The notes: a model not told the origin generated them from the letters alone. Positions 4,101 to 30,307 are shown, numbered from the stretch's first letter. The stretch: 46,619 nt of DNA from Nitrospirota bacterium (GCA_013151495.1 JAADIE010000081.1:1-46619); one strand, 5' to 3'. Numbers and translations are program-made.

Positions 4101-6398
4101 ATGAAAAGACTGAAAATTAAGGTAACCGGAAGAGTTCAGGGCGTTGGATTCAGACCCTTTGTTTACAACCTTGCAAAGGCCCTATCGCTTAGAGGGTATG
4201 TGTTGAACTCATCAAAAGGGGTGGTTATAGAGGTGGAGGGCAACCGGGTGGAGGAGTTTCTTCAGAGATTAAAACAATCACCACCTCCGCTTTCAGATAT
4301 CGAAAGGGTGATTGTAGAAGAGGTATCACCTGTAGGGGAGCAGGATTTCAGGATACTTGAAAGCCAGGAAGAGGGAAGCTTTACCCATGTCTCCCCGGAT
4401 GTATCTGTTTGTGAAGAATGCCTTGGGGAAATGCTTGATAAAACGGACCGGCGATACCTGTATCCCTTTATAAACTGCACAAACTGTGGCCCAAGATACT
4501 CCATTACCCTTTCACTTCCCTATGACAGGCCAAACACCACCATGAGGATCTTTAAGATGTGCCAGAAGTGCCAATCAGAATATGATGACCCCACAAACCG
4601 AAGATTCCATGCCCAGCCAAATGCGTGTCCTGAGTGTGGCCCTTCTCTTAGCTTCAGACTAATTAATAAGGCCTTTAAAAGATGTGTAGAAGAAGATCCT
4701 CTACAGAGTACCATAAACCTGTTGAACTCAGGTGCTATTGTGGCGATTAAAGGCCTGGGGGGTTTTCATATAGCCTGTGATGCCCTGAATGAAAGGGCTG
4801 TAGAGAAACTAAGGGAAAGAAAGCGTAAAAGTAACAAACCCTTTGCCCTTATGGCAGCCTCGGTGGAGATTATAAAGAGGTTTGTCCTTATGGATGACAG
4901 GGAACAGGAGCTTCTTGAGTCAAACAGGCGGCCAATCGTGCTTATGAGAAAACGACCAGGCTGTGAGATACCAGAGGTTGTGGCACCAGGGAATAGATAC
5001 CTTGGTTTCATGCTCCCCTACACACCTTTACACTATCTGCTTTTTTATAGCCCCCCTGGTTCACCTGAAAACCCCCTCTTTAAATGTCTTGTCATGACCA
5101 GTGGAAACCTGAAGGAAGAGCCAATAATACATAGAAATGATGATGCCCTGGAGAGACTGTCGGGACTTGTAGATGCCTTTTTGTTTCATAATCGAGATAT
5201 ATTTATGAGGGTGGATGATTCGGTGGTGAAAAAGGAACTCTTTATCAGAAGGGCAAGGGGGTATGTTCCAGAACCGATAGTGCTTCCAGATGATGGACCA
5301 GAAGTGCTGGCCACAGGTGCTGACCTGAAAAATACCTTTTCATTGACTAAGGAAAACTATGCTATCCTGAGTCAGCATATAGGTGATATGGAAAACTATG
5401 AAACCCTTCTTTTTTTTCAGGAGGTCCTTGAAAACCTGAAGGCCCTTTACAGGATAAAACCCATTGCTGTGGCTACAGACCTTCATCCAGGTTACCTCAG
5501 CCGTCAGTGGGCTGATAGTCAGGCCCTCCCGGTTACCTATATCCAGCACCATTATGCCCATGCAATGGCCGTAGTGGCTGAACATGGGCTTAAGGCCCCG
5601 GTTATAGGAGTGGTTTTTGATGGCACCGGTTATGGCCTTGATGGACGCATCTGGGGAGGCGAGTTTCTCTGGGTAGATACAGAGGGCTTTCAGAGGCTTG
5701 CCCACCTGGATTATCTGAGACTTCCAGGTGGTGAAATGGCTATAAAACAGCCCTGGCGTACGGCCGTGGCATTACTAAGAGGGTTGTATGCTGAGGAAAC
5801 AGAGGGGTTTTTGAAGAGACTTGGTTTTTTTGAACGAATAGATCTGAAACAGATAGAGATGGTGCTCTCGATAGCAGAAAATGAACAGTTCAGTCCATTT
5901 AGCTCAGGCGCTGGCAGGTACTTTGATGCCCTTTCTTCCATAGTATCTCTGGTTGATTTCAATACCCATGAGGCTGAGGCTCCAATGGCTCTGGAGGCAA
6001 TTACCCTTGATGGTGTGGATGAGGTATATCCTTTTGATATAAATGAAGAGACAATACCAATGGTGATAAGTCTTAGAAGATGTTTCCAGAGGGCTGTAGA
6101 TGATTATCTTCAAGATGTGGAGCTTGAAATTATAGCCACAAGGTTCCATAATACAATGGCAGCCCTTATAAGGGATACAGTGATGAGGCTTAAGAGCCGG
6201 AAAGGGGAGGTAAAAGAGGTGGTGCTTTCTGGTGGGGTTTTTCAGAATAGTTATCTTCTTTCAAAGACCTTTGAATATCTTGCTGATACAGGTTTAAAGG
6301 TCTATTTTCACAAATCCATTCCACCCAACGATGCCTGTATCTCACTTGGGCAGGCATATATACTCAGGGAAAGGTTAAAAAGGGGGATGAATGTCTGA
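4101..6398 (+). CDS. hypF: [NiFe]-hydrogenase maturation carbamoyltransferase HypF
   Basis: Acylphosphatase domain GRVQGVGFRPF, zinc fingers CTNCGPRY and HAQPNACPECGP, HHYAH, DGTGYG, PPND. Confidence 0.97.
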   Translation: MKRLKIKVTGRVQGVGFRPFVYNLAKALSLRGYVLNSSKGVVIEVEGNRVEEFLQRLKQSPPPLSDIERVIVEEVSPVGEQDFRILESQEEGSFTHVSPDVSVCEECLGEMLDKTDRRYLYPFINCTNCGPRYSITLSLPYDRPNTTMRIFKMCQKCQSEYDDPTNRRFHAQPNACPECGPSLSFRLINKAFKRCVEEDPLQSTINLLNSGAIVAIKGLGGFHIACDALNERAVEKLRERKRKSNKPFALMAASVEIIKRFVLMDDREQELLESNRRPIVLMRKRPGCEIPEVVAPGNRYLGFMLPYTPLHYLLFYSPPGSPENPLFKCLVMTSGNLKEEPIIHRNDDALERLSGLVDAFLFHNRDIFMRVDDSVVKKELFIRRARGYVPEPIVLPDDGPEVLATGADLKNTFSLTKENYAILSQHIGDMENYETLLFFQEVLENLKALYRIKPIAVATDLHPGYLSRQWADSQALPVTYIQHHYAHAMAVVAEHGLKAPVIGVVFDGTGYGLDGRIWGGEFLWVDTEGFQRLAHLDYLRLPGGEMAIKQPWRTAVALLRGLYAEETEGFLKRLGFFERIDLKQIEMVLSIAENEQFSPFSSGAGRYFDALSSIVSLVDFNTHEAEAPMALEAITLDGVDEVYPFDINEETIPMVISLRRCFQRAVDDYLQDVELEIIATRFHNTMAALIRDTVMRLKSRKGEVKEVVLSGGVFQNSYLLSKTFEYLADTGLKVYFHKSIPPNDACISLGQAYILRERLKRGMNV

Positions 6399-7455
6399 AG
6401 GAAGGCTACTCAGGGAGTATGTTAAGAGGCTTGCTCAGAGGATTGGCAGGCCGGTGAGGTTGATGGAGGTCTGTGGTACCCACACGGTGAGTATCTTCAG
6501 ACACGGCATCAGGGCCATGCTCCCTGAGGGGGTTGATCTTCTTAGTGGCCCTGGTTGTCCTGTATGTGTAACCTCCATTGAGGATATAGACTGGGCAATA
6601 GCCTTTTGTAAACAGGTTGGTGGTGTAATTGCCACCTTTGGTGATATGATGAAGGTGCCTGGTTCTGATATGAACTTCTTTCAGGCCAGAGCTGAAGGAG
6701 CTGATATCAGGTTTGTTTACTCTCCTGTTGATGCCCTTAATATTGCAGTTGAGGAACCAGATAAAGAGGTGGTATTTTTTGCTACCGGCTTTGAGACCAC
6801 CTCTCCCACTGTGGCAGCAGTGCTTAAAAGGGCACTTGATGAAAGGGTGGGGAACTTTTATATCTACTCGGTTCATAAGCTTGTACCACCAGCCCTGAAG
6901 GCACTGGTTGAGGACAAGGAGGTAAGGGTTGATGGTTTCATCCTGCCAGGGCATGTAAGCACCATAATCGGCAGCAGGGGGTATGAGTTTTTAGCAAGAC
7001 AGTACAAACTACCTGGAGTTATAACCGGCTTTTCTCCTGAGGAAATAATGCAGGGGATTGCCATGCTTCTTGAGCAGATACTTCAGGGCAGGGCCGAGAT
7101 TGAGATCCAGTATAAAAAGGTGGTAAGGCCTGAGGGTAATCCTCAGGCATTGAGGCTTTTAGAGGATGTCTTTACACTGGCCGATTCCTACTGGAGAGGT
7201 ATCGGTATGATTCCCCAGAGTGGACTGGAACCAGCCGAGCAGTATTCTGAACATGACGCAAAGCAGGCTTTCAGGCTTGAGTTTACATCAAAGCCAGAGC
7301 CACGGGGTTGTTCCTGTGGTGAGGTGCTCAGAGGTGTTAAGAAGCCAACGGACTGTCCGTTGTTCCGAAAGGTCTGTACCCCTGAACGGCCAGTTGGAGC
7401 CTGTATGGTAAGCACCGAGGGAAGTTGTGCTGCCTACTATAAGTATAGCTATTGA
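6391..7455 (+). CDS. hypD: hydrogenase formation protein HypD
   Basis: MEVCGTHT, GPGCPVC, GFETT, PGHVS and C-terminal Fe-S motif GACMVSTEGSCAAYY. Confidence 0.97.
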   Translation: MSEGRLLREYVKRLAQRIGRPVRLMEVCGTHTVSIFRHGIRAMLPEGVDLLSGPGCPVCVTSIEDIDWAIAFCKQVGGVIATFGDMMKVPGSDMNFFQARAEGADIRFVYSPVDALNIAVEEPDKEVVFFATGFETTSPTVAAVLKRALDERVGNFYIYSVHKLVPPALKALVEDKEVRVDGFILPGHVSTIIGSRGYEFLARQYKLPGVITGFSPEEIMQGIAMLLEQILQGRAEIEIQYKKVVRPEGNPQALRLLEDVFTLADSYWRGIGMIPQSGLEPAEQYSEHDAKQAFRLEFTSKPEPRGCSCGEVLRGVKKPTDCPLFRKVCTPERPVGACMVSTEGSCAAYYKYSY

Positions 7456-18759: not shown

Positions 18760-18841
18760 CCCTTCCTTTATTGTGTTTGTGGGCTAAAATAACCGTAGTA
18801 TCGCATCTTTTTATTGATTGCACAGGTGCCTTTCAAAACTG

Positions 18842-18871
18842 TTTACCACAGGACAACTTATAGGGTACAAT
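18842..18871 (+). promoter_or_regulatory. sigma70-type leaderless promoter of the bEBP gene
   Basis: TTTACC-N18-TACAAT, 6 nt before ATG 18878. Confidence 0.6.
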
Positions 18872-18877
18872 CTCCAT

Positions 18878-20200
18878 ATGGTTAGATATATGATTGTGGA
18901 GGACGATGAATTAATTGCTACCATGTTAAGCGAACTTATTACATCAATAGGTGGCAGGGTGCATTATGCAAAAAATGCAGAAGAGGCACTATCTCTAACC
19001 ACTCTGTATAGAATCGATATAGCCCTGATTGATCTAATGCTACCGGACATTGATGGTATCGAGTTAATCGGAAAACTTCGGTCTTTACAGCAGGATATCT
19101 TTTTTATTGTTATTACCTCAGTATATGAGCCAAGTGTTATAGTGAGGGCTATAAAAGAAGGGGCCTCTGAGTACTTAACAAAACCTTTCGAGGTTCAATA
19201 CCTCAAGAAGATACTGACCAATTACCAGGAACTTGCAATACTGAAGAAAAGAGAAAAGGCCAGGCTGGAGAGCATACCTCCACTTGAGGAGATCCTGGGA
19301 ACAAGCAAGGTAATGAAGGACCTTAAAAGGACAATTGCAGATATTGCCAGATACGATAGTACGGTTTTACTTACAGGACCTACCGGGGTTGGAAAGGGAT
19401 TGATTGCAGGCGTAATTCACAGGCTAAGTAAGAGGGCTGATGGTCCTTTCATTACCTTCGACTGTACTACAGTACCAGAGAACCTTATGGAGGCTGAGCT
19501 TTGTGGTTATAAAAGAGGGGCCTTTACAGGTGCAGACCATGATAAAGTCGGTTTAGTAGAAATGGCTGATGGAGGTACTCTTTTTATTGATGAGATAGGG
19601 GAGTTACCACTGCACCTCCAGACAAAGCTCCTCAGGATAATCGATGAGGGGAGTTTCAGGAGGTTAGGAGATGTAACTGATCGAAGGGTTGATGTAAGGG
19701 TAATATCAGCTACAAATAAAGACCTCAGATCAATGGTGAAAGAGGGAAGATTCAGAAACGACCTTTATTACAGACTGGATGTAATAAGTATAAATGTGCC
19801 ACCTCTTTCAGAAAGAGGAGAGGATGTATGGTTGCTGGCTAATTATTTCTTATGCTATTACATAAACAAAACCGGTAAAAGGATAAAGGGTTTTTCAAAG
19901 GAGGCAGAACGGTTTATATGGCAGTATAGCTGGCCTGGTAATGTGAGAGAGCTTAAAAACCTCATTGAAAGAGCTGTTGTTATGGCCGAGGATGAATGGA
20001 TAAGACCCTCTGACTTTATGATCCCCGAGTATACGATCAGATCAAGAGAGTTCCGGTTCCCTGAGACTCCATTACCCTTAAAGGAGATCGAAAAAAGGTA
20101 TATCAAGTATGTCCTGTCACTGACCGGTAATAATAAAAGTAAAGCAGCAAAGCTTCTGGGCATAACCAGAAATACACTGAGAGAAAAATTAAAAGAATAA
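18878..20200 (+). CDS. sigma54-dependent response regulator (NtrC/AtoC family: REC-AAA+-Fis HTH)
   Basis: REC (EDD, DLMLP, TKPF), Walker A GPTGVGK, GAFTGA, FIDEIGE, WPGNVREL, HTH NKSKAAKLLGITRNTL. Confidence 0.95.
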   Translation: MVRYMIVEDDELIATMLSELITSIGGRVHYAKNAEEALSLTTLYRIDIALIDLMLPDIDGIELIGKLRSLQQDIFFIVITSVYEPSVIVRAIKEGASEYLTKPFEVQYLKKILTNYQELAILKKREKARLESIPPLEEILGTSKVMKDLKRTIADIARYDSTVLLTGPTGVGKGLIAGVIHRLSKRADGPFITFDCTTVPENLMEAELCGYKRGAFTGADHDKVGLVEMADGGTLFIDEIGELPLHLQTKLLRIIDEGSFRRLGDVTDRRVDVRVISATNKDLRSMVKEGRFRNDLYYRLDVISINVPPLSERGEDVWLLANYFLCYYINKTGKRIKGFSKEAERFIWQYSWPGNVRELKNLIERAVVMAEDEWIRPSDFMIPEYTIRSREFRFPETPLPLKEIEKRYIKYVLSLTGNNKSKAAKLLGITRNTLREKLKE

Positions 20201-20237: not shown

Positions 20238-20299
20238 CCTATATTGTTTTGCCTCTATAAAAAAGGCCACAATCAATACCTTTCATCCAGTGCAATTTC

Positions 20300-20315
20300 T
20301 GGCATTTCTCTTGCA
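20300..20315 (+). promoter_or_regulatory. sigma54 -24/-12 promoter of the two-CW gene
   Basis: TGGCATTTCTCTTGCA has GG-N10-GC spacing. Near-IHF site AATCAATACCTTT at 20271-20283. Confidence 0.8.
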
Positions 20316-20354
20316 CACTACTAATAGCCAAAAAAACAGGGAGGTGATTCGAGG

Positions 20355-20570
20355 ATGATGAACTGCTGGGAGTTCAAGAAATGTGGAAGAGACAAAACTG
20401 GTGATTGTCCTGCTTATACTCGAAGGGCGGGTAAGGTTTGCTGGATTGTGGCAGGAACAATGTGTGATGGGGAGGTTCAGGGTACCTTTGCCAAAAAGAT
20501 TAGCACCTGTATCAAATGTGATTTCTATCAATACATGAATAAAGAGGCCAGAGATAAACTAAAATCCTAA
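20355..20570 (+). CDS. small Cys-rich two-CW domain protein
   Basis: NCWEFKKC..CPAY..CWIVAGTMC..CIKCDFY; SD GGGAGG/GAGG upstream. Confidence 0.85.
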   Translation: MMNCWEFKKCGRDKTGDCPAYTRRAGKVCWIVAGTMCDGEVQGTFAKKISTCIKCDFYQYMNKEARDKLKS

Positions 20571-21404
20571 ATTTAGTATTGATTGTTCTTTAATTTCTTT
20601 ATAGGAGAAGACAGGGCCATCTTTACAGATATATAGCTTTCCTGCATAACAGTGGCCACACTTGCCCACACCACATTTCATGTGGGCCTCCAGTGTGGTT
20701 ATTATTCGTTCTTCTGGCATCCCAAAGAAGAAGAGGTCCTGCATGGCCGCCCTGATCATAACCTCAGGGCCACATATAAAGGCCACAGATTTTTTAAAGT
20801 CCACCTCAGCCAGGTGCCACAGAGTGGTTACCAGTCCTACATTTCCCTTCCAGCCATCTGTTGGCCTATCTACGGTTAAAACTACATTGACCCCCTGTTG
20901 TTTCCACTTCCTGGTTTCGTCGAGGTAGACAATATCATCAGGGCTACGGCTTCCATAAAGAAGGGATACCTTATACTTCTTTCTCTTCATAAAGGTCTCT
21001 ATTAAAGGTCTAAGTGGAGCTATTCCAATTCCACCTGCCACTATCACCACATCACGACCCTTAGCAAGTTCTAAAGGAAATGCCCTGCCATAGGGGCCTC
21101 GTATCCAGAGGTTATCGCCTTCTTTCAGCTGATGAATCCTGCCTGTAACCATCCCTACTCTTCTGATACAGAACTCGATTCTGGTACTTTTTCTGGCCAG
21201 AGATGTAACCGATATGGGAACCTCACCAGCTCCCCAGACAGAAACCATAAAGAACTGACCGGCCTTATAATGTACTGGTTCTTCGAGTTCAAGAGTAAAA
21301 AGGCTTACATCTGAGGTTTGTTTTTTTATGCGCTCTATGGTACCTTTTATGGGTCGGTAGATATTGTTTTCCTGTTTTGCGGGCTCTCTGTTTTTAACCT
21401 TCAT
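20559..21404 (-). CDS. FAD/NAD(P)-binding [2Fe-2S] subunit, AsrB / sulfhydrogenase gamma (HydG) / FlxA-like
   Basis: GQFFM..GEVPIS, RGPYG, AGGIGIAPLR, CGPEVM, MKCGVGKCGHC..CKDGPVF. Start at 21404 with GAGGAG SD. Confidence 0.9.
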   Translation of the reverse strand: MKVKNREPAKQENNIYRPIKGTIERIKKQTSDVSLFTLELEEPVHYKAGQFFMVSVWGAGEVPISVTSLARKSTRIEFCIRRVGMVTGRIHQLKEGDNLWIRGPYGRAFPLELAKGRDVVIVAGGIGIAPLRPLIETFMKRKKYKVSLLYGSRSPDDIVYLDETRKWKQQGVNVVLTVDRPTDGWKGNVGLVTTLWHLAEVDFKKSVAFICGPEVMIRAAMQDLFFFGMPEERIITTLEAHMKCGVGKCGHCYAGKLYICKDGPVFSYKEIKEQSILNLGF

Positions 21405-22449
21405 CAGTAATCTCCTCACCATTCAGGGCAATGCTTTTGAGTTTCATACATACACTGGCCATGTCTATTCTGCCAGGGCAGGTAACTGTGCAGCGGCCAC
21501 ACCCCACACAACCAAAACTTTCAAGCACATCAGGGTAGTGTATCAGCTTATGGAAAAACCATCGTTTCGTTCTTTTTATCCTCTCTTCGTTGGGGAGTAT
21601 TCCACCAGCCAGCCTGGTAAAGCCTTTAAAAAGACAGCTATCCCACAGCCTTGCTCGTTCCACTGTGTCGTTATAACTTCTGTCGACCACTGTAAAGCAG
21701 GTACATAAGGGGCACTGGTATACACAACCACCACACTCAAAACACCTCGAGGTTATGCCCTGCCAGAAGCTGTCCTTGATGCGGCCTGATTTTATAAGTT
21801 GCCTGCTTTGCTGAAGGCTTATTCTTTTTTGAAATCGTGCCTTTGAGCTAAGCAATACCTCGTACTGGTCGTCGTAGTCTGATTTTTGTGGTCTACTAAA
21901 AAGAAAATGATAGTTCTTTATGATAGATATAGCCCACTCAGACTCGGCCTGAACAAAGTACCTATCTCCAAGGTCTGTAAGCTGTATATCGAAGCCCTGT
22001 TTAAGATAGGGGCCTGTGTCGAGTCCTATACAGAAACAGGTAGGGTCTGGGTTGTTGCAGACTATGGAGATAAGCAGGCTGTTTTCCCTGCGGCTTTTAT
22101 AATAGGGATCGGGCATCTCATCAATGAAAAATCTATCAAGAGTGTTCAGGGCTGCCACATCACAGGAGCGGAGTCCAAATATGACCCTTTTTGTTTTAGA
22201 GATGGAATCAACTACCCGGTCATCCTTTTTTGAGTACTCAAAGAGCCTTTCATACTGGGGCAGGAAAAACTCCTTGACGCTTGGTAGCAGGGACGGACAG
22301 TTTAACTCTATCTTATGGATATGCTCAACCTGTTTAAATACAATGTCTCCCACCTGATCGCGCATTGGTGCTATAAGCTGCATCTGGTTTCTCAGCTGTC
22401 GCAGCCAGTAAGACAGGTGGTTTTTATCCAGAATCCATTCCCTCTTCAT
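21394..22449 (-). CDS. 4Fe-4S dicluster subunit, AsrA / sulfhydrogenase beta (HydB) / FlxB-like
   Basis: GLRSCD, C..PDPTCFC, CFECGGCVYQCPLCTCF, WDSC, CVGCGRCTVTCP. Confidence 0.88.
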   Translation of the reverse strand: MKREWILDKNHLSYWLRQLRNQMQLIAPMRDQVGDIVFKQVEHIHKIELNCPSLLPSVKEFFLPQYERLFEYSKKDDRVVDSISKTKRVIFGLRSCDVAALNTLDRFFIDEMPDPYYKSRRENSLLISIVCNNPDPTCFCIGLDTGPYLKQGFDIQLTDLGDRYFVQAESEWAISIIKNYHFLFSRPQKSDYDDQYEVLLSSKARFQKRISLQQSRQLIKSGRIKDSFWQGITSRCFECGGCVYQCPLCTCFTVVDRSYNDTVERARLWDSCLFKGFTRLAGGILPNEERIKRTKRWFFHKLIHYPDVLESFGCVGCGRCTVTCPGRIDMASVCMKLKSIALNGEEITDEG

Positions 22450-24545
22450 TCCTCTATCCTCAGGCTTTCAAGCTCCACCTCAGGGGGCTTGGGGGTTTTA
22501 ACTACAGGCATCTTATAAAGAGGCTCTATCCTGACAGCACAGACCTTGTATTCCGGGATCTTTGCCTTTGGATCAACTGCAGGGTTGGTAAGTCTGTTTA
22601 CTGCTGCCTCAGCATAATGAAATGGAATAAAAACCGTGCCCTGCGGTATTTTGCCGGTCAGCTTTGCTTTTACCTCAATTGAACCTCTACGAGAGGTAAC
22701 CTTTACTGGCCAGCCATTTTTGATTCCCAGTGAGTCTGCGTCTTCAGGATTTATCTCAACAAAACATTCTGGTTCTTCCCTTTCAAGTACCACCGTTCGT
22801 CTACACATGGTGCCAGTATGGTAGTGGAAATAGATTCTTCCTGTTGTTAAAAGGAAGGGGTATTCTTTATCCGGTGGCTCATCAGGGGGAATGTAATCCA
22901 CAGTTATAAAGGTTCCAAGCCCCTTTGCAAATTTCTTCCGATGTAAATAAGGTGTGCCCGGGTGGTCCTGAGTAGGGCAGGGCCACTGAAGCCCGAACCC
23001 TTCTTTCAGCCTATGATGAAGTATCCCTCCATAGGAGGGAGTTAGCAGTGCAATCTCTTCCATAATTTCATAGGTGCCACGATAGTGCATCCTGTAGCCC
23101 ATTCTTGTGGCAAGATCAACTATAATCTCCCAATCTGCCTTTGCCTCACCTGGTGGCGAGATGGCCCTCTGAAGAAGCTGTACCCTGCGCTCAGTGTTTG
23201 TATAAGTGCCATCCTTTTCTGCAAAGCTTGCAGCAGGTAATACAACATCTGCATAGTTCATGGTTTCATTGGGAAATATGTCCTGCACAACTACAAAGTC
23301 TATCCTTTCCATGGCCTTTTCAAGATGTCCAAGGTCGGGGTCTGAAAGCAGAGGGTTTTCTCCCATTACATAAAGGGCCTTCAGGCGTCCCACATAGGCC
23401 ATATCCATCATCTCCATAAGGGTCAACCCGGGCTTGGGGTTTAGCTTTTTCCTCCAGGTGTTCTGGAATTTTTTTCTTGCCCTCGGGTCTGTAACAGTCT
23501 GATAACCGGAAAAGACATTTGGTAATGCACCCATATCACAGGCACCCTGAACATTATTCTGACCCCTGAGAGGATTTATGCCCGACATGGGTAGCCCTAT
23601 ATGGCCTGTTAACATAACAAGATTTGCCAGTGCCCTTACATTGTCCACCCCAGTGATATGCTGGGTAATACCCATTGCATAAAAGAGCATGGAGCGTTTT
23701 TCCATTGCATAAATACGAGCCACCCTTCTAAGGAGCTGTATTTTTACCCCGGTTATAGCCTCTACCTTGGCAGGATCAAAGGTCCTGAGGGTGTCAAGGA
23801 AGGAGTCAAAGTTTTCTGTCCTCCGTTTAACAAAATCAATATCTACAAGACCTTCGGTAACAATGATATTCATCAAGCCCATCAGAAGTGCAACATCAGA
23901 ACCAGGACGATGCTGTAGATGGATATGGGCAAACTCTGCAAGCTGTGTTTTCCTTGGATCAGCCACTATCAGGGTTGCTCCACTGTCAACTGCATCAAGC
24001 ATATGCATGGCTATCATGGGATGTTGTTCAGTGGTATTGGAGCCGATCACAAAAAGTACCCTGGCATTAATGATTTCATTTATAGAGTTTGTCATTGCAC
24101 CTGAGCCAAAGGCTGCAGCAAGACCACCCACGGTAGAGGAATGACACAGCCTGGCACAATGATCTATGTTGTTGGTTCCGACAACAGCCCTTGCAAACTT
24201 CATCATGAGGTAATTTTCCTCGTTAGTACACTTTGCAGAGCTTAGCAAACCAATGGAATCGCTTCCGTAAAGCCTTTTTATTTCTGTGAGTCGGCGGGCA
24301 ATCAGATCGAGGGCCTCATCCCAGGTTGCCCTTACAAGAGTGCCCCTTTTTCTAATCATTGGAAATTTAAGCCTGTCAGGATGATGGACAAACTCATAGC
24401 AGTTCCAGCCCTTAACACAGAGGCTTCCACGATTTACTGGGTGGTTTATGCAGGGTGATACACCTACAATACGGTCGTCCTCAACATGTAGGTATAGTCC
24501 ACAACCACAGCCACAATAGGGGCATACTGTGAGAATCTTGTCCAT
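22446..24545 (-). CDS. fdhF: formate dehydrogenase catalytic subunit (Mo/W-bisPGD, FdhF/FdhA-like, Cys-type, cytoplasmic)
   Basis: CPYCGCGC..LCVKG Fe-S motif, CARLCHSST (Cys ligand plus His), LRGQNNVQG, PEYKVCAV. No Tat signal. Confidence 0.93.
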   Translation of the reverse strand: MDKILTVCPYCGCGCGLYLHVEDDRIVGVSPCINHPVNRGSLCVKGWNCYEFVHHPDRLKFPMIRKRGTLVRATWDEALDLIARRLTEIKRLYGSDSIGLLSSAKCTNEENYLMMKFARAVVGTNNIDHCARLCHSSTVGGLAAAFGSGAMTNSINEIINARVLFVIGSNTTEQHPMIAMHMLDAVDSGATLIVADPRKTQLAEFAHIHLQHRPGSDVALLMGLMNIIVTEGLVDIDFVKRRTENFDSFLDTLRTFDPAKVEAITGVKIQLLRRVARIYAMEKRSMLFYAMGITQHITGVDNVRALANLVMLTGHIGLPMSGINPLRGQNNVQGACDMGALPNVFSGYQTVTDPRARKKFQNTWRKKLNPKPGLTLMEMMDMAYVGRLKALYVMGENPLLSDPDLGHLEKAMERIDFVVVQDIFPNETMNYADVVLPAASFAEKDGTYTNTERRVQLLQRAISPPGEAKADWEIIVDLATRMGYRMHYRGTYEIMEEIALLTPSYGGILHHRLKEGFGLQWPCPTQDHPGTPYLHRKKFAKGLGTFITVDYIPPDEPPDKEYPFLLTTGRIYFHYHTGTMCRRTVVLEREEPECFVEINPEDADSLGIKNGWPVKVTSRRGSIEVKAKLTGKIPQGTVFIPFHYAEAAVNRLTNPAVDPKAKIPEYKVCAVRIEPLYKMPVVKTPKPPEVELESLRIEE

Positions 24546-24559
24546 TGTGCTTTTATTTA

Positions 24560-24575
24560 TGCAAGGTATGTGCCT
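24560..24575 (-). promoter_or_regulatory. sigma54 -24/-12 promoter of the fdh operon
   Basis: AGGCACATACCTTGCA on the minus strand (GG-N10-GC), 14 nt upstream of ATG. Confidence 0.75.
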
Positions 24576-24669: not shown

Positions 24670-24806
24670 TACCATCTTTTCTGAATATAAATTAATTTAA
24701 TGTTGCTATAACTATTATTCATGATTTATGCTTGACTTAATGCCTGAAGGCATGTTATTACTTATTGGCTTTTTTACCTACACCAAACCGATACACAGGA
24801 GGTCAA

Positions 24807-26114
24807 ATGGCACTTCTTACTTTCAAAGGTGGCGTTCATCCTCCAGAAAACAAAGAGCTTTCAGCAAAAGCACCTATCAGAGAGGCTGCACCGCCAAAAC
24901 AGGCAGTAATTCCTTTAAGTCAGCATATTGGGGCACCCTGTAATTGTGTAGTAGAGGTTGGGCAGGAGGTCAAAAAGGGGCAACTCATTGGTGAACCTAC
25001 TGCCTTTGTTTCAGCTCCGGTTCATTCTTCGGTGTCAGGAAAGGTGGTTGAGATTACCCAGATTCCTAATGCTATGGGCAGGCTGGTGCAGGCAGTGGTA
25101 ATCGACAACGATGGAAAGGAAGAATGGGCTCCCCTTCAGGATAATCCGGATTATATGAACCTATCACCAGAGGAGCTGAAGGAAAAGATTAAAAATGCAG
25201 GTATTGTTGGAATGGGTGGTGCAACATTTCCTACTCATGTGAAGCTCTCTCCACCAAAGGAAAAGCCTATTGATGTGGTTATTATCAACGGTGCCGAATG
25301 CGAGCCCTATCTCACAGCCGACCATAGATTGATGGTTGAAAATCCTGAACAGGTCATAGAGGGGCTCAAGATACTGATGAAAATACTGGGTGTTTCCAAA
25401 GGCTATGTGGGGATAGAGAACAACAAGCCCGATGCAATCGAGAAGATGACAGAGGCTGCCTCAAAGGAGCCAAACATTGAGGTCAAGGCCCTTCAGGTAA
25501 AGTATCCTCAGGGTGCTGAGAAGATGCTGATCAAGGCCATTATCGACAGAGAGGTCCCGGCTGGTGGACTACCCATGGATGTAGGGGTGGTGGTTCAGAA
25601 TGTCGGTACAGCCGTAGCCATTTTTGAGGCCTGCAGATATGGAAAGCCTTTGATTGAGAGGATTGTTACCGTTACAGGACGGGGTGTTAAAGAACCGGGA
25701 AATCTTAAGGCGAGAATCGGTACCCCAATAAGGCAGCTTATTGATGAGTGTGGTGGCTTTGTAGACAATCCCAAAAAGGTTATCCTCGGTGGACCAATGA
25801 TGGGTTTTGCCCAGTTTTCTCTTGATGTGCCTGTTACCAAGGGTACTTCGGGAGTTCTGGTATTATCTGAGACCGAGTATGTTTCTTCTGAGAAGTATGG
25901 CCCATGCATTCGTTGTGGCAGATGTATTGAGGCCTGTCCTATGGGGCTTATGCCTTTGATGCTCAGTATTCTTTCAGAAAAGGGCTTCTACGAGGATACC
26001 AGGGAATACAATATCATGGATTGTTTCGAATGTGGAAGCTGTACATATGTGTGTCCGTCAAAAAGACCAATCGTGCATCATATAAGATTGGCTAAATCAC
26101 TAATAAAAAGATAA
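24807..26114 (+). CDS. rnfC: Rnf complex subunit C
   Basis: TFKGGVHP, GMGGATFPTHVK, NGAECEPYLTAD, KYPQGAEK, two 4Fe-4S motifs. ATG 24807 with AGGAGG SD. Confidence 0.96.
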   Translation: MALLTFKGGVHPPENKELSAKAPIREAAPPKQAVIPLSQHIGAPCNCVVEVGQEVKKGQLIGEPTAFVSAPVHSSVSGKVVEITQIPNAMGRLVQAVVIDNDGKEEWAPLQDNPDYMNLSPEELKEKIKNAGIVGMGGATFPTHVKLSPPKEKPIDVVIINGAECEPYLTADHRLMVENPEQVIEGLKILMKILGVSKGYVGIENNKPDAIEKMTEAASKEPNIEVKALQVKYPQGAEKMLIKAIIDREVPAGGLPMDVGVVVQNVGTAVAIFEACRYGKPLIERIVTVTGRGVKEPGNLKARIGTPIRQLIDECGGFVDNPKKVILGGPMMGFAQFSLDVPVTKGTSGVLVLSETEYVSSEKYGPCIRCGRCIEACPMGLMPLMLSILSEKGFYEDTREYNIMDCFECGSCTYVCPSKRPIVHHIRLAKSLIKR

Positions 26115-26138
26115 ATAAATAACTAAAGGAGTGATAGG

Positions 26139-27149
26139 ATGGCAGTTACAAACAGGGATCAGGAGCTTGTAGTTACTGTTAGTCCACATGTAAGATCCGA
26201 TGAGTCTACTGCAAAGATAATGTGGACTGTTACATTAAGTCTTTTGCCTGCCTTTGCAATGTCGGTCTATTATTTTGGACCAAGAGCTGTTTATGTAACT
26301 GCCCTGAGTATTCTGGGCTGTTTGTTCAGTGAGTGGCTTGTCCAGAAAATGGCAGGCAGAGAGATAACCCTCTCAGACGGTAGTGCCTTCTTAACCGGTT
26401 TACTGCTTGGAATGAATATGCCATCATCGGTTCCATTTTATATTCCGCTGGTTAGTGCCTTTGTAGCTGTGGCAATAACAAAACAGCTTTTTGGAGGTCT
26501 TGGTTATAACATCTTTAATCCTGCTTTGATCGGTAGGGCCTTTGCCCTGATTACCTGGCCCAGGGCCATGACTACATGGTTTACGCCAACTGCAGCCTTT
26601 GTGGCAATGGATGCAAAAACCACTGCAACTCCTCTTGGGATACTGAAGGAAGAGGGGATGCATAAGCTGCTCGAGGTCTTTGGTGATAAGATGACCCTGT
26701 ATTACCAGCTACTTATTGGGCACAGGGCAGGTTCCCTTGGTGAGACATCGGTAATAGCGATATTAATTGGTGCTGCATTCCTGCTATACAAGAGATATAT
26801 TTCACTTCATATACCTCTTTCATTTCTTGCTACTGTGGCAGTGCTCACCTGGGTCTTTGGTGGGAAAGAAGGACTCTTTACGGGTGATCCTATCGTTCAT
26901 TTGCTTAGTGGTGGCTTGATGTTGGGAGCCTTTTACATGGCTACAGATTATGTAACATGCCCATCAGTAAAGACTGGTCAGATTATATTCGGAATAGGAT
27001 GTGGTGCCCTGACGGCTCTGATAAGGTTAAAGGCCGGTTACCCGGAGGGTGTTATGTTTGCCATACTGCTGATGAACTGTTTTACCCCGCTGATTGATCG
27101 CAATCTCAAGACAAAGGTCTTTGGCGCCAGAAAGGAGGCTGCGAAATGA
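26139..27149 (+). CDS. rnfD: Rnf complex subunit D
   Basis: SPH, KQLFGGLGYNIFNPAL, TTATPL FMN-Thr site, GSLGETS, MATDYVT. Confidence 0.96.
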   Translation: MAVTNRDQELVVTVSPHVRSDESTAKIMWTVTLSLLPAFAMSVYYFGPRAVYVTALSILGCLFSEWLVQKMAGREITLSDGSAFLTGLLLGMNMPSSVPFYIPLVSAFVAVAITKQLFGGLGYNIFNPALIGRAFALITWPRAMTTWFTPTAAFVAMDAKTTATPLGILKEEGMHKLLEVFGDKMTLYYQLLIGHRAGSLGETSVIAILIGAAFLLYKRYISLHIPLSFLATVAVLTWVFGGKEGLFTGDPIVHLLSGGLMLGAFYMATDYVTCPSVKTGQIIFGIGCGALTALIRLKAGYPEGVMFAILLMNCFTPLIDRNLKTKVFGARKEAAK

Positions 27150-27817
27150 CTTTCAAGGACATACTGAAGATAACCTTCAACCTCGTTGTCCTTTATCTGG
27201 CAGGTGGGTTGCTGCTGGCTGCTGTTTACGCAAAGACTTCACCAGTAATTTATCAGAAGAACGAGGAAGAAAAGAGGCAGGCCCTTCAGGCCATGATGCC
27301 AGAGGCCCAGGATATAATAAAACTTGGCGACTGGTACCCTCATGAAAAACACGCAGAGTACTATGAGGCTCGTAAATGCGGCGAAATTAAAATTAAAACC
27401 ATTAAGGATGAAAAGACCGGAAAAACAAAGGAAATAAAGGAGTGTATCGATCCAGAACCAATCGGTTATATTGTACAGACCTTTGGTAAAGGTTATTCAA
27501 GTTATATAAACATTCTATTTTCTGTTGATAAGAACTTTGTAGTTCAGAGGATGAATATTCTGCATCATGCAGAAACCCCTGGTTTGGGTGATGAAATTGA
27601 GAAAGACTGGTTTAAGAATCAGTTCAAGGGTAAGGACATAGATCATCTTGTGGTAGATAAAACAGGGACCAGGAAAGAATACATCCAGGCCATTACTGGT
27701 GCCACCATATCTACTAGGGCTGTTACAGAGGATGGTATTAAAAGGGGCCTGGAATTTTTAATAAAAGCCATCAAGGAAGGAGAGGTGGAACATGGAGCAT
27801 CAGGAAGAGAAGGTTAG
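27146..27817 (+). CDS. rnfG: Rnf complex subunit G
   Basis: N-terminal TM, KGYS, HAETPGLG, ITGATIST FMN-Thr site. Confidence 0.93.
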   Translation: MTFKDILKITFNLVVLYLAGGLLLAAVYAKTSPVIYQKNEEEKRQALQAMMPEAQDIIKLGDWYPHEKHAEYYEARKCGEIKIKTIKDEKTGKTKEIKECIDPEPIGYIVQTFGKGYSSYINILFSVDKNFVVQRMNILHHAETPGLGDEIEKDWFKNQFKGKDIDHLVVDKTGTRKEYIQAITGATISTRAVTEDGIKRGLEFLIKAIKEGEVEHGASGREG

Positions 27818-28433
27818 TTATCTTCAATTAATAAAAAATGGAGTCTTTAAGGAAAATACCATCTTCAGACTGGTTATCAGTCTGTGTCCATCTATTGCTG
27901 TTACCAATAGTGTGAGGAATGGATTCCTGCTTGGTGTAGCGGTTCTTTTTGTTCAGACCATGGTTAACACAACAGTGGCACTTCTTAGAAGGTTTATACA
28001 TCCACGAATCAGGATTCCCATCTTTATGCTGGTTATTTCCGGATGGGTTAGTGTAGTTGATATGGTAATGGCAGCCTATGCAAGGGCCGCCTATAAAGAG
28101 ATCGGTCTGTATATACAGATTATTGTTGCCTTTGCATCAATTCTGGCAAGGGCGGAGATGTTTGCCAGTAAGAACAGACCCCTGGCAGCTTTCTTCGATG
28201 GTTTTGGCTCGGGATTGGGATTCCTGGTAGCCCTTGTGATTATCAGTTTCTTCAGGGAACTGCTTGGTAAGGGCTCTCTTTGGGGTTTTCAGATTATCGA
28301 GGCAAAACCACTGCTTATAATGATAATGCCAGCTGGTGGTTTTATAGCTGTTGGTCTGCTGATGGGCTTTTTCAACTGGATCGATATTCGTTTCTATGGT
28401 GGTAAGGGTGCTGGTGGTGCATCCGGACATTAA
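27792..28433 (+). CDS. rnfE: Rnf complex subunit E (variant lacking the second conserved Cys)
   Basis: EN..F...LCPSIAVT, RIRIP, RAEMFA, RELLG, PAGGF; position in CDGEAB. Confidence 0.93.
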   Translation: MEHQEEKVSYLQLIKNGVFKENTIFRLVISLCPSIAVTNSVRNGFLLGVAVLFVQTMVNTTVALLRRFIHPRIRIPIFMLVISGWVSVVDMVMAAYARAAYKEIGLYIQIIVAFASILARAEMFASKNRPLAAFFDGFGSGLGFLVALVIISFFRELLGKGSLWGFQIIEAKPLLIMIMPAGGFIAVGLLMGFFNWIDIRFYGGKGAGGASGH

Positions 28434-28501
28434 GTAGTTGAATTTGGATCTGCTTATGTGGGATAATTAATAAAGTAATTAGTTTATAAAAGGAGGCTGC
28501 A

Positions 28502-29095
28502 ATGAGCAATGAATTTATAAAACTCTTCGAGCTTTTTATAGCAGCATCGGTAATTAACAACTTTGTATTTACACGCTTCCTTGGGTTATGTATCTTCTTT
28601 GGTGTTTCAAAGAAGATGGAGACTGCAATCGGAATGAGCATTACCTTTACAGCCGTTATGGTTATCGCAGCAGCCCTTAGCTGGCTGGTATTTACCTACA
28701 TCATGGTCCCTCTTGAGATAACATTCCTTAAGATAATCATATTTATTGGTATTGTAGCCGCTTTTGTGCAGGCAGCAGACACGATTATGCGTAAGGTTAG
28801 TCCGGGGTTATATTACAAACTGGGTGTTTATCTTGCTCTCATTTCAACTAACTGTATCATTATAGCGGTTCCGCTTATTAATGCTGGCGAACATTACAAC
28901 TTTCTCGAAAGTCTCTCCTTTGGTTTTGGTTCTGGAATCGGTTTTGCCCTTGCACTTGTTATAATGGCAAGTATTCGTGAAAAGCTTGAGCTTGCCGATG
29001 TGCCAAGGCCATTCAGGGGTATGCCAATTGCTTGGGTCACAACAGCACTTATAGCACTGGCATTTACAGGATTTTCAGGACTGATTACATTATAA
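28502..29095 (+). CDS. rnfA: Rnf complex subunit A
   Basis: NNFVFTRFLGLC, LISTNC, IREKL..DVP..GMPIA. Confidence 0.95.
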   Translation: MSNEFIKLFELFIAASVINNFVFTRFLGLCIFFGVSKKMETAIGMSITFTAVMVIAAALSWLVFTYIMVPLEITFLKIIIFIGIVAAFVQAADTIMRKVSPGLYYKLGVYLALISTNCIIIAVPLINAGEHYNFLESLSFGFGSGIGFALALVIMASIREKLELADVPRPFRGMPIAWVTTALIALAFTGFSGLITL

Positions 29096-29134
29096 AAATA
29101 CACATACTTTATAGCGTTTATGGAGGTCAGGTAA

Positions 29135-30307
29135 ATGATAGATTACAGCTTAGTAAATGAGATACTCAGGGCAATAGGCAGTCTTAATCTTGCAGAACTT
29201 ATTAATCATATTCCCCTTCCTCATGTTGGTGTGGGTGGTGGCATTGAGGCAAAGGAATCGGTTGATATTGTGCAGACCATAGAGTTTACCGCCATGTTTA
29301 TCTTTGGTGTTGGTGCAGTTTTTGGACTTGGCCTTGCCTTTGCTGCCAAAAAGTTTTCTGTAAAGCGTGACCCAAGGATAGATCAGGTCAGGGAATATCT
29401 GGCAGGCGCACACTGTGGTGCCTGTGGATATCCTGGCTGCGAACAGTATGCCGAGGCAGTTGTGCAAAACCCTGATGTGCCACCAAACCTCTGTACCCCT
29501 GGTGGTGAGAAGGCTGCAAAGATGGTTGCCCTGATTACCGGTAAAGAGGCTGTTGCTACAGAGCCAAAGTTTTCAAGGATAATGTGTCAGGGAGACTGGC
29601 AGAAGTCTACAAAGAGATTTAAATACGAGGGTGTTCAGGACTGCCGCGCTGCTGTGCTTGCAGGTGGTGGGGACAAAAGCTGTATTTACGGTTGTCTTGG
29701 ATATGGAACCTGTGCAAAGGTTTGTCCCTTTGATGCAATCCATATGAATGAAAACCATCTGCCCGTTGTCGATGTTGGCAAGTGTACAGGTTGTAGAAAG
29801 TGTGAGGCAGCCTGTCCGAAAAAGGTCATCGAAGTGCTTCCAGGCAGCAAGGCAGTGGTTGTGGCATGTCATAGCCGCGACAGGGGCGCTGATACCAGAA
29901 AGTACTGCCAGATCGGCTGTATCGCCTGTGGAGCCTGCGAGAAGGTATGCCCCTTTGATGCAGTAAAGGTGGAAAACAATGTCTCAAGGATAGATTACGA
30001 TAAGTGCCGTGTTTGTGGTCTTTGTGTTCGTAAATGTCCTACCAAGGCAATAGTTGATCATATGCCAACCAGGCCAAAGGCCTTTGTGATCGAGGAAAAA
30101 TGTATTGGCTGTAACGCCTGCATGAAGGTATGCCCTGTTAATGCTGCCTATGGTGAGCTGAAGAAACCTCACACCATTGATCAGTCCAAGTGCATTGGCT
30201 GTGGTATATGCACTGCAAGATGTCCTAAACAGGCTATTGACGGCACCTTTAATGCAAAAGAGGTATTCCGTCTGGCCGAGGAAAAGAGGAAGAAAAAGGC
30301 GGCTTAA
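29135..30307 (+). CDS. rnfB: Rnf complex subunit B (long polyferredoxin form)
   Basis: TM segment, CGACGYPGC..CTPGG, then six ferredoxin-type CxxCxxCxxxCP-like motifs. Confidence 0.93.
   Translation: MIDYSLVNEILRAIGSLNLAELINHIPLPHVGVGGGIEAKESVDIVQTIEFTAMFIFGVGAVFGLGLAFAAKKFSVKRDPRIDQVREYLAGAHCGACGYPGCEQYAEAVVQNPDVPPNLCTPGGEKAAKMVALITGKEAVATEPKFSRIMCQGDWQKSTKRFKYEGVQDCRAAVLAGGGDKSCIYGCLGYGTCAKVCPFDAIHMNENHLPVVDVGKCTGCRKCEAACPKKVIEVLPGSKAVVVACHSRDRGADTRKYCQIGCIACGACEKVCPFDAVKVENNVSRIDYDKCRVCGLCVRKCPTKAIVDHMPTRPKAFVIEEKCIGCNACMKVCPVNAAYGELKKPHTIDQSKCIGCGICTARCPKQAIDGTFNAKEVFRLAEEKRKKKAA

Follow-up and report, generated by a model that had tools for sequence, protein, structure and literature searches.

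A conserved gene triplet of Nitrospirota predicted to encode a cytoplasmic formate dehydrogenase with a hydrogenase-type diaphorase

A stretch of 46,619 nucleotides (nt) from a Nitrospirota bacterium (GCA_013151495.1, JAADIE010000081.1:1-46619; the whole stretch is referred to here as the window) carries three overlapping genes, designated fdhA, beta and gamma, on its minus strand. These genes are likely to encode a soluble cytoplasmic alpha-beta-gamma enzyme acting as a formate:NAD(P)+ (nicotinamide adenine dinucleotide (phosphate)) oxidoreductase or as an NAD(P)H-dependent CO2 reductase. This reading is preferred because the genes appear to be coupled, their order is conserved, the first product has the catalytic residues of a formate dehydrogenase (FDH), the Cys ligands of the other two match those of sulfhydrogenase I, and no alternative partner was found in the genome. 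An earlier note on this DNA had proposed the same trimer, which stands as the best-supported reading; the idea proved not to be new, and the wording in which FDH replaces a hydrogenase moiety has been weakened. As judged from the sequences, an FDH with a hydrogenase-type diaphorase containing flavin adenine dinucleotide (FAD) in place of NuoEF is real and conserved, and it is probably functional.

Gene organisation of the triplet

The gene fdhA (22446..24545, minus strand) codes for 699 amino acids (aa) and its product is predicted to be the catalytic subunit of a cytoplasmic Cys-type FDH with a molybdenum or tungsten bis-pyranopterin guanine dinucleotide cofactor (Mo/W-bisPGD). The gene beta (21394..22449, minus strand) encodes a HydB/AsrA-like electron-transfer subunit of 351 aa, and gamma (20559..21422, minus strand) a HydG/AsrB/PyrK-like protein. 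The TGA of fdhA and the ATG of beta share the sequence ATGA at 22446-22449, and the TAA of beta lies at 21394-21396. Two candidate ATG codons were found for gamma, at 21422 and 21404, which give proteins of 287 and 281 aa and overlaps with beta of 29 and 11 nt, respectively. The ATG at 21404 is the likelier start because it is preceded by a Shine-Dalgarno-like GAGGAG stretch, and the resulting overlap of 11 nt spans 21394-21404. The open reading frame (ORF) calls and the start and stop positions agree with the three overlapping genes recognised in the earlier note. Translational coupling of fdhA, beta and gamma is evident from the shared ATGA and from the 11 or 29 nt that beta and gamma have in common.

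The catalytic subunit

The whole FdhA protein scored 866.1 bits against TIGR01591 (cut-off 666.25) and contains the Pfam domains Molybdop_Fe4S4 (residues 3-55), Molybdopterin and Molydop_binding. At the metal-ligand site there is Cys134, whose codon is not TGA, followed by His135, and an Arg is found at 327; we take these to be the equivalents of the selenocysteine (Sec)-His pair and the Arg of Escherichia coli FdhH. The N-terminal [4Fe-4S] ligands C8, C11, C15 and C43 were invariant among 20 sequences. The protein begins at this Cys motif and therefore has no twin-arginine translocation (Tat) leader and no signal peptide. The Cys134 codon, the missing leader and the TIGR01591 score all agree with the cytoplasmic Cys-type FDH that had been suggested before. 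The nearest solved chains were 9t1s_L, the alpha subunit of an F420-dependent FDH, and 7qv7_S, the FdhF of a hydrogen-dependent CO2 reductase (HDCR). An assignment as nitrate reductase was ruled out: NasC scored 587 bits against a cut-off of 1100, and the protein has the Cys-His pair and the Arg of the FDH type.

Among 69 orthologous FdhA sequences that include the site, 60 have a Cys codon at the ligand position and nine have TGA. In the orthologue alignment of 66 rows the His is kept in 65 (it is masked in the remaining one) and the Arg in all 66. One locus (L058) has an in-frame stop in its FdhA region at the position of Gly322, shortly before the conserved Arg motif, which might reflect a pseudogene or an assembly error.

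The electron-transfer subunits

The beta protein contains a Fer4_22 domain, and its 15 conserved Cys, invariant across 14 orthologues, follow a pattern that would accommodate three [4Fe-4S] clusters. Its only solved homologue is the beta subunit of sulfhydrogenase I (9nez_B, E 7.5e-40). In the printed alignment a Cys of 9nez_B stands opposite 14 of the 15, the exception being Cys138. The gamma protein carries the domains FAD_binding_6, NAD_binding_1 and DHODB_Fe-S_bind, the last of these being a PyrK-type [2Fe-2S] domain, and its best solved match is the gamma subunit of the same enzyme (9nez_C, E 9.2e-48), to which it also aligns in the C-terminal Cys motif. These domains bear out the earlier description of a 4Fe-4S protein followed by an FAD/NAD(P)/[2Fe-2S] protein.

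Both proteins scored below the curated family cut-offs. For beta the scores were 150.4 bits against AsrA (TIGR02910; cut-off 323.15), 169.5 against ShyB (690) and 157.2 against HydB (750), and for gamma they were 219.3 against AsrB (TIGR02911; 288.6), 189.5 against ShyC (600) and 173.1 against HydG (650). Moreover, none of the 78 nearest beta representatives scanned, among the 150 listed, passed any curated cut-off, including those of AsrA, HydB and ShyB. In predicted ligands and domains beta and gamma resemble the group 3b module, yet they lie outside the curated HydB/HydG and ShyB/ShyC families. Close homologues carry names such as 'sulfhydrogenase subunit beta (sulfur reductase)' or 'anaerobic sulfite reductase subunit A'.

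An exhaustive profile-free search gave 3374 relatives of beta at E <= 1e-3. The clade of the window forms one 50% cluster (487 bits), after which the next match falls to 279 bits and 38% identity. The members of the 10 nearest outgroup clusters carry only names of candidate phyla or metagenomes. Fusions of beta and gamma of about 650 aa are common, comprising all 120 listed of the 125 longer homologues (proteins P0273-P0392), some of them with an additional response-regulator domain.

Conservation of the gene order

The order of the three genes was examined in 80 loci. These came from a scan, with 14 aligned beta orthologues, in which each species was represented by a single genome, and neighbours were located by tblastn with the proteins of the window. 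Close relatives, with beta identities of 49-78%, account for 74 of these loci. An FdhA of 60-84% identity is encoded directly upstream of beta in 72 of the 74; of the two left over, L087 is cut by a contig end and L074 has genes for MgsA, RNase Y and YmdB instead. In 78 of the 80 loci the gamma gene comes next after beta, the exceptions being L071 and L085, which end just past beta, and it is present in all 72 close loci that have sequence beyond beta (two are cut there). Of 401 Nitrospirota genomes sampled, 48 (30 of 162 genera) have an orthologue at E <= 1e-90. The synteny of fdhA, beta and gamma is far beyond chance, and the search for conserved triplets proposed in the earlier note was answered with an FdhA upstream in 72 of 73 informative close loci.

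The sister clade and a degenerate triad

A scan of metagenomes with an alignment of seq­uences from seven sister-clade beta proteins yielded another 80 loci. A molybdenum (Mo)-type subunit is encoded directly upstream of beta in 69 of them, and the other 11 start less than 180 nt from a contig end. Among these 69 subunits 26 are FDH-like (51-72% identity to FdhA), and the active site is covered in 18 of the 26, all of which have TGA at the ligand position. The split between Cys and Sec ligands lies between the clades, with mostly Cys in the clade of the window and TGA in the sister clade. Directly after gamma, 16 sister-clade loci with Sec-type FdhA (L105-L136) encode a homologue of RACo, the activase of the corrinoid Fe-S protein, an adjacency that links the Sec-type FdhA-beta-gamma to the Wood-Ljungdahl pathway.

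The remaining Mo-type subunits of the sister clade have 27-47% identity to FdhA. In 10 of 10 examined, the Cys/Sec-His and the Arg are lost and the Cys of the N-terminal cluster are kept. Such degenerate loci continue with genes for HycI (42/80), an Mrp/NuoL-like antiporter (41/80) and a NuoC-NuoD/[NiFe] group-4-type large subunit (26/80). The same arrangement is present in six distant loci of the genome scan and in five Nitrospirota loci, and it matches a region reported in the description of Saganbacteria (PMC6349859). The degenerate triads are L139-L184, L114, L131, L132, L185-L189 and L095-L102. The degenerate triad may be the NAD(P)H-input module of a membrane-bound hydrogenase.

Phylogeny of the small subunits

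For comparison, 20 weaker beta matches were taken out of 251 Nitrospirota genomes and labelled by their gene neighbourhood: 13 belong to beta-gamma-delta-alpha operons of group 3b hydrogenases, two are associated with Hdr/MvhD and five are of the group-4 type. A maximum likelihood tree of beta (IQ-TREE, LG+G4) was built from 77 sequences: the 70 Nitrospirota FDH-linked rows were thinned to every fourth and the 53 group-4-linked rows to every third, all remaining rows were taken, and identical ones were removed. It separates 62 rows linked to a Mo-type subunit from 15 rows linked to group 3b hydrogenases or Hdr, with an ultrafast bootstrap (UFBoot) of 98 and a Shimodaira-Hasegawa approximate likelihood ratio test (SH-aLRT) value of 83. 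The rows linked to group 4 cluster together (96/90), and in a quick beta tree the Nitrospirota clade of the window had an SH-aLRT of 99. The gamma tree (67 rows) gave the same split, weakly (59/90). The trees were midpoint-rooted, with single-phylum outgroups and flagged long branches, and bona fide AsrA, Pyrococcus furiosus HydB and Desulfovibrio FlxB were outside the set. Of the comparison suggested in the earlier note, against AsrAB, HydBG and FlxAB, the trees cover 3b- and Hdr-linked rows of Nitrospirota, from which the Mo-linked rows separate.

Since the Mo-linked beta is set apart in the tree from the beta of 3b hydrogenases and of Hdr, the topology argues for an old dedicated lineage and not for a recent swap. 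The picture of an FDH that takes the place of a hydrogenase on a borrowed module is weakened by the same separation.

Genomic context and alternative explanations

The window is contig C112 of a 1.73-Mb genome in 128 contigs, estimated to be 95.6% complete. By the names of its nearest homologues it belongs to Nitrospirota / Thermodesulfovibrionales. In this genome beta is single-copy. No AsrC (TIGR02912) was found at the cut-off, the best score being 55.5 bits against 324.1 and the best matches Dsr-like, and no group 3b hydrogenase was detected in the 95.6% covered; the only [NiFe] large subunit above cut-off contains Sec and is encoded on contig C81. Genes for HdrABC, for HdrA-, HdrB- or HdrC-like proteins and for FlxCD (MvhD-like) are absent from the operon and its flanks, the search for Hdr being confined to this region. 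In agreement with what had been noted before, genes for AsrC, NiFe, Hdr and NuoEF subunits are missing from the operon.

The alternative that survives best, and which we consider unlikely, is that the triplet works within a larger or ferredoxin-coupled system, either as an FDH with flavin-based bifurcation or confurcation or as a physical partner of Rnf. A complete rnfCDGEAB operon (24765-30307, plus strand) lies divergently 220 bp from fdhA, and rnf adjoins the triplet in L023 and L024, the two closest relatives, as well. Moreover, another Nitrospirota genome has genes for an HdrA-like protein, beta, gamma and HdrC- and HdrB-like proteins beside rnf (L190, G288:C87; RnfC 67% identical to that of the window). 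Nevertheless, rnf adjoins the triplet only in those two of the 80 fetched loci, and Rnf operons are common housekeeping units whose divergent placement is weak evidence. Also against this reading, the triplet has a single flavin site, located in gamma, and no NuoF-, GltD- or HdrA-like subunit.

It is still less probable that beta and gamma act as a terminal reductase, making the enzyme a formate-driven reductase of sulfur, polysulfide or another small molecule. The sulfur reductase and sulfite reductase names of the homologues would fit, and Dsr-like genes are present in the genome; these names, however, are transferred annotations and not tests. The sulfur-reductase role of sulfhydrogenase is itself regarded as non-physiological. 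Both proteins score far under the AsrA/AsrB and HydB/HydG cut-offs, siroheme AsrC is missing at cut-off, and gamma retains a complete NAD-binding domain. A further point in favour comes from Desulfurivibrio dismutans, in which the homologous fdhA-hydB-hydG genes are reported as upregulated during sulfur disproportionation (PMC12142623).

The least probable alternative is that FdhA works on its own, for example as an FdhF-like monomer, with beta and gamma serving a partner encoded elsewhere and the gene order reflecting co-regulation only; a beta-gamma pair without FdhA (L074) and the lack of alpha-beta fusions among the 120 listed of 125 longer homologues would agree with it, but it is opposed by the stop/start overlaps, by the subunit upstream in 72 of 73 informative close loci and 69 of 69 informative sister-clade loci, by the absence of an alternative partner in the genome and by the degenerate Mo-like subunits, which also keep their order with beta and gamma.

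Proposed mechanism and physiological role

For the preferred alpha-beta-gamma FDH the following chain can be proposed, because beta and gamma align with the cluster ligands of the sulfhydrogenase I beta and gamma subunits. Formate oxidation would take place in FdhA at the bis-pyranopterin site with its Mo or W (Cys134 as ligand, His135 and Arg327), and the electrons would leave through the N-terminal [4Fe-4S] cluster of FdhA and pass along the three [4Fe-4S] clusters of the HydB-like beta. From there they would reach the [2Fe-2S] cluster of gamma, its FAD and finally NAD(P)+. The chain is presumably reversible, and in reverse the enzyme would be an NAD(P)H-dependent CO2 reductase. The gene anatomy, the catalytic and ligand residues, the conserved order and the separate lineage are observed, whereas the assembly of the three proteins, the route of the electrons, the choice of nucleotide and the direction of the reaction in the cell are predictions from the genes. 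A search for RNA data sets that contain the locus gave none.

The genome also encodes a second cytoplasmic FDH (G000 contig C111:10041-17381, locus L103), consisting of a NuoE-like protein, a NuoF-like protein and a Sec-type (TGA) FdhA with a NuoG-type N-terminus. This cluster continues with a gene for a cyclic nucleotide monophosphate (cNMP)-binding protein and then with formate-tetrahydrofolate (THF) ligase, and acetyl-CoA synthase is present in the genome. Given the acetyl-CoA synthase and this Sec-type, NuoEF-linked FDH beside formate-THF ligase, the Cys-type enzyme probably provides another route, regulated by sigma-54, that connects formate or CO2 with the pyridine-nucleotide pool. It could serve under selenium scarcity or use a different nucleotide.

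Several points weigh against a trimeric formate:NAD(P)+ oxidoreductase or CO2 reductase. No fusion of FdhA with beta and no Mo domain was found among the 120 listed of 125 longer beta homologues, an absence that is weak evidence, and in L074 the beta-gamma pair stands without an upstream FdhA. Thermodynamics favour the transfer of electrons from formate to NAD(P)+, and a CO2-reducing role therefore needs a high NAD(P)H/NAD(P)+ ratio. A formate channel of the FocA/NirC type was looked for in the 95.6%-complete genome and not found, so that the substrate may not be formate from outside the cell. In addition, the homologous genes of D. dismutans are described as lowly expressed in the report on that organism (PMC12142623).

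More tentatively, the enzyme of the window might be the catalytic representative of an old, unrecognised family of NAD(P)H modules made of a Mo-type subunit, beta and gamma. The active form of this possible family would be a CO2 reductase or FDH linked to NAD(P)H, either selenium-free (Cys) or Sec-dependent and often beside Wood-Ljungdahl genes (RACo), and the degenerate, NuoG-like form would be an alternative NAD(P)H input of a complex-I-like group 4 [NiFe]-hydrogenase. Such an input would mean that the N-module of complex I has been arrived at a second time, independently. The occurrence of the degenerate triad on group 4 hydrogenase clusters also bears on the origin of NuoG-like subunits and of the NAD(P)H input modules of complex I relatives. 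A Cys-type, selenium-independent CO2 reductase of three subunits linked to NAD(P)H would, if confirmed, be of interest for work on enzymatic CO2 capture and cofactor regeneration. Metagenome studies take hydBG as an indicator of sulfur reduction, as one such study illustrates (PMC9326234), and if beta and gamma are the diaphorase of an FDH, inferences of sulfur reduction from hydBG would be wrong for these lineages. These implications for annotation, application and evolution are drawn from genomes throughout.

Flanking genes and putative regulation

A sigma-54-type (-24/-12) promoter-like element with one mismatch to the consensus is located at 24560..24575 (minus strand), 15 nt upstream of the fdhA ATG, and may be the promoter of the operon. 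The leader from this element to the ATG would be very short. Hits to the sigma-54 consensus with up to two mismatches show no excess over chance in the window (25 found, 24.7 expected). The core GGCA(C/T)-N5-TTGCA is nevertheless retained in the corresponding position of L023 and L024, the nearest orthologous loci, with different flanks. In both loci a tandem array of about 8-10 copies of the 10-nt sequence GTTCRAACNG lies upstream of fdhA, just upstream of the sigma-54-like element (L023:3800-3890 and the corresponding region of L024). This array is absent from the window and could be an activator-binding array.

An NtrC-type sigma-54 activator of the response-regulator kind (Response_reg, Sigma54_activat and HTH_8 domains) is encoded at 18818..20200 on the plus strand, and by its adjacency it is a candidate regulator of the fdhA operon. 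A copy of this gene, 67% identical, is found at the same place in L023. A histidine kinase gene also lies downstream of the triplet. Just after the activator gene there is an ORF for a two-CW-domain protein of 71 aa (20355-20570, plus strand; NF045718, 74 bits against a cut-off of 35), whose 3' end overlaps the end of gamma in convergent orientation. A sigma-54-type element with one mismatch (20300-20315, plus strand) precedes it. An ORF of 82 aa on the minus strand (20283-20531) is probably spurious, since the reading that is conserved there is the two-CW-domain ORF. Elsewhere in the window (4101-7455, plus strand) the hydrogenase maturation genes hypF and hypD are found.

Comparison with known systems

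The earlier note had presented this architecture as a candidate new one, a claim that does not hold, as the same idea is already in print. The 2013 description of Iplasma (PMC3750248) places homologues of asrA and asrB without asrC beside fdhF and suggests that they are part of the FDH. For D. dismutans, the 2025 report describes FdhA, HydB and HydG (RS03135-RS03125) without HydA or HydD and proposes that NAD(P)H drives CO2 reduction by FdhA (PMC12142623). Both clusters have the three-gene layout and the proposed function in common with the window; they belong to other phyla and are likened here by their published description. A full-text literature search found no biochemical or structural characterisation of an FDH with this layout, a provisional result given that the search did not extend to subscription journals. 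The layout is widespread, has been hypothesised in print and apparently has never been characterised at the bench. What is added here is how widely the layout is conserved, the division of the clades by Cys and Sec ligands, a sigma-54 element, and evidence for a lineage of Mo-linked beta-gamma that includes a degenerate NuoG-like version.

To our knowledge, the modules found in NAD(P)-linked metal FDHs that have been characterised are NuoEF-type, HDCR, Hdr or F420 ones. The NuoEF-type enzymes, such as FdsABG of Rhodobacter capsulatus (6tg9) and FoDH1 of Methylobacterium (7e5z/7vw6), belong to the same catalytic family as FdhA (582-637 bits) and follow the same overall logic, from FDH through an Fe-S chain and a flavin to NAD(P). 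However, FdhA of the window has no NuoG-like N-terminal extension, the flavoprotein is of the FAD/PyrK type and not of the flavin mononucleotide (FMN)/NuoF type, and the operon encodes neither NuoE nor NuoF. In the FlxABCD-HdrABC system of the Desulfovibrio type FlxA is HydG-like and FlxB HydB-like. The window operon differs from it in having no HdrA-, HdrB-, HdrC- or MvhD-like genes, and the two Hdr-linked beta of Nitrospirota sit on the hydrogenase side of the tree, away from the beta of the window. The AsrABC system of the Salmonella type shares with the triplet the AsrA-like and AsrB-like domain content and the gene order, but the proteins of the window miss the AsrA and AsrB cut-offs and the genome has no AsrC at cut-off.

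Sulfhydrogenase I of P. furiosus (group 3b, PDB 9nez/9nf0) provides the solved homologues of beta and gamma. The operon of the window lacks the hydrogenase delta and alpha subunits, its products score far under the HydB, ShyB and HydG cut-offs, and the 13 beta from beta-gamma-delta-alpha operons fall apart from the Mo-linked beta in the tree. Nevertheless, nearly all the Cys of beta and the [2Fe-2S] motif of gamma align with those of sulfhydrogenase I, and the FAD and NAD(P) domains are common to both.

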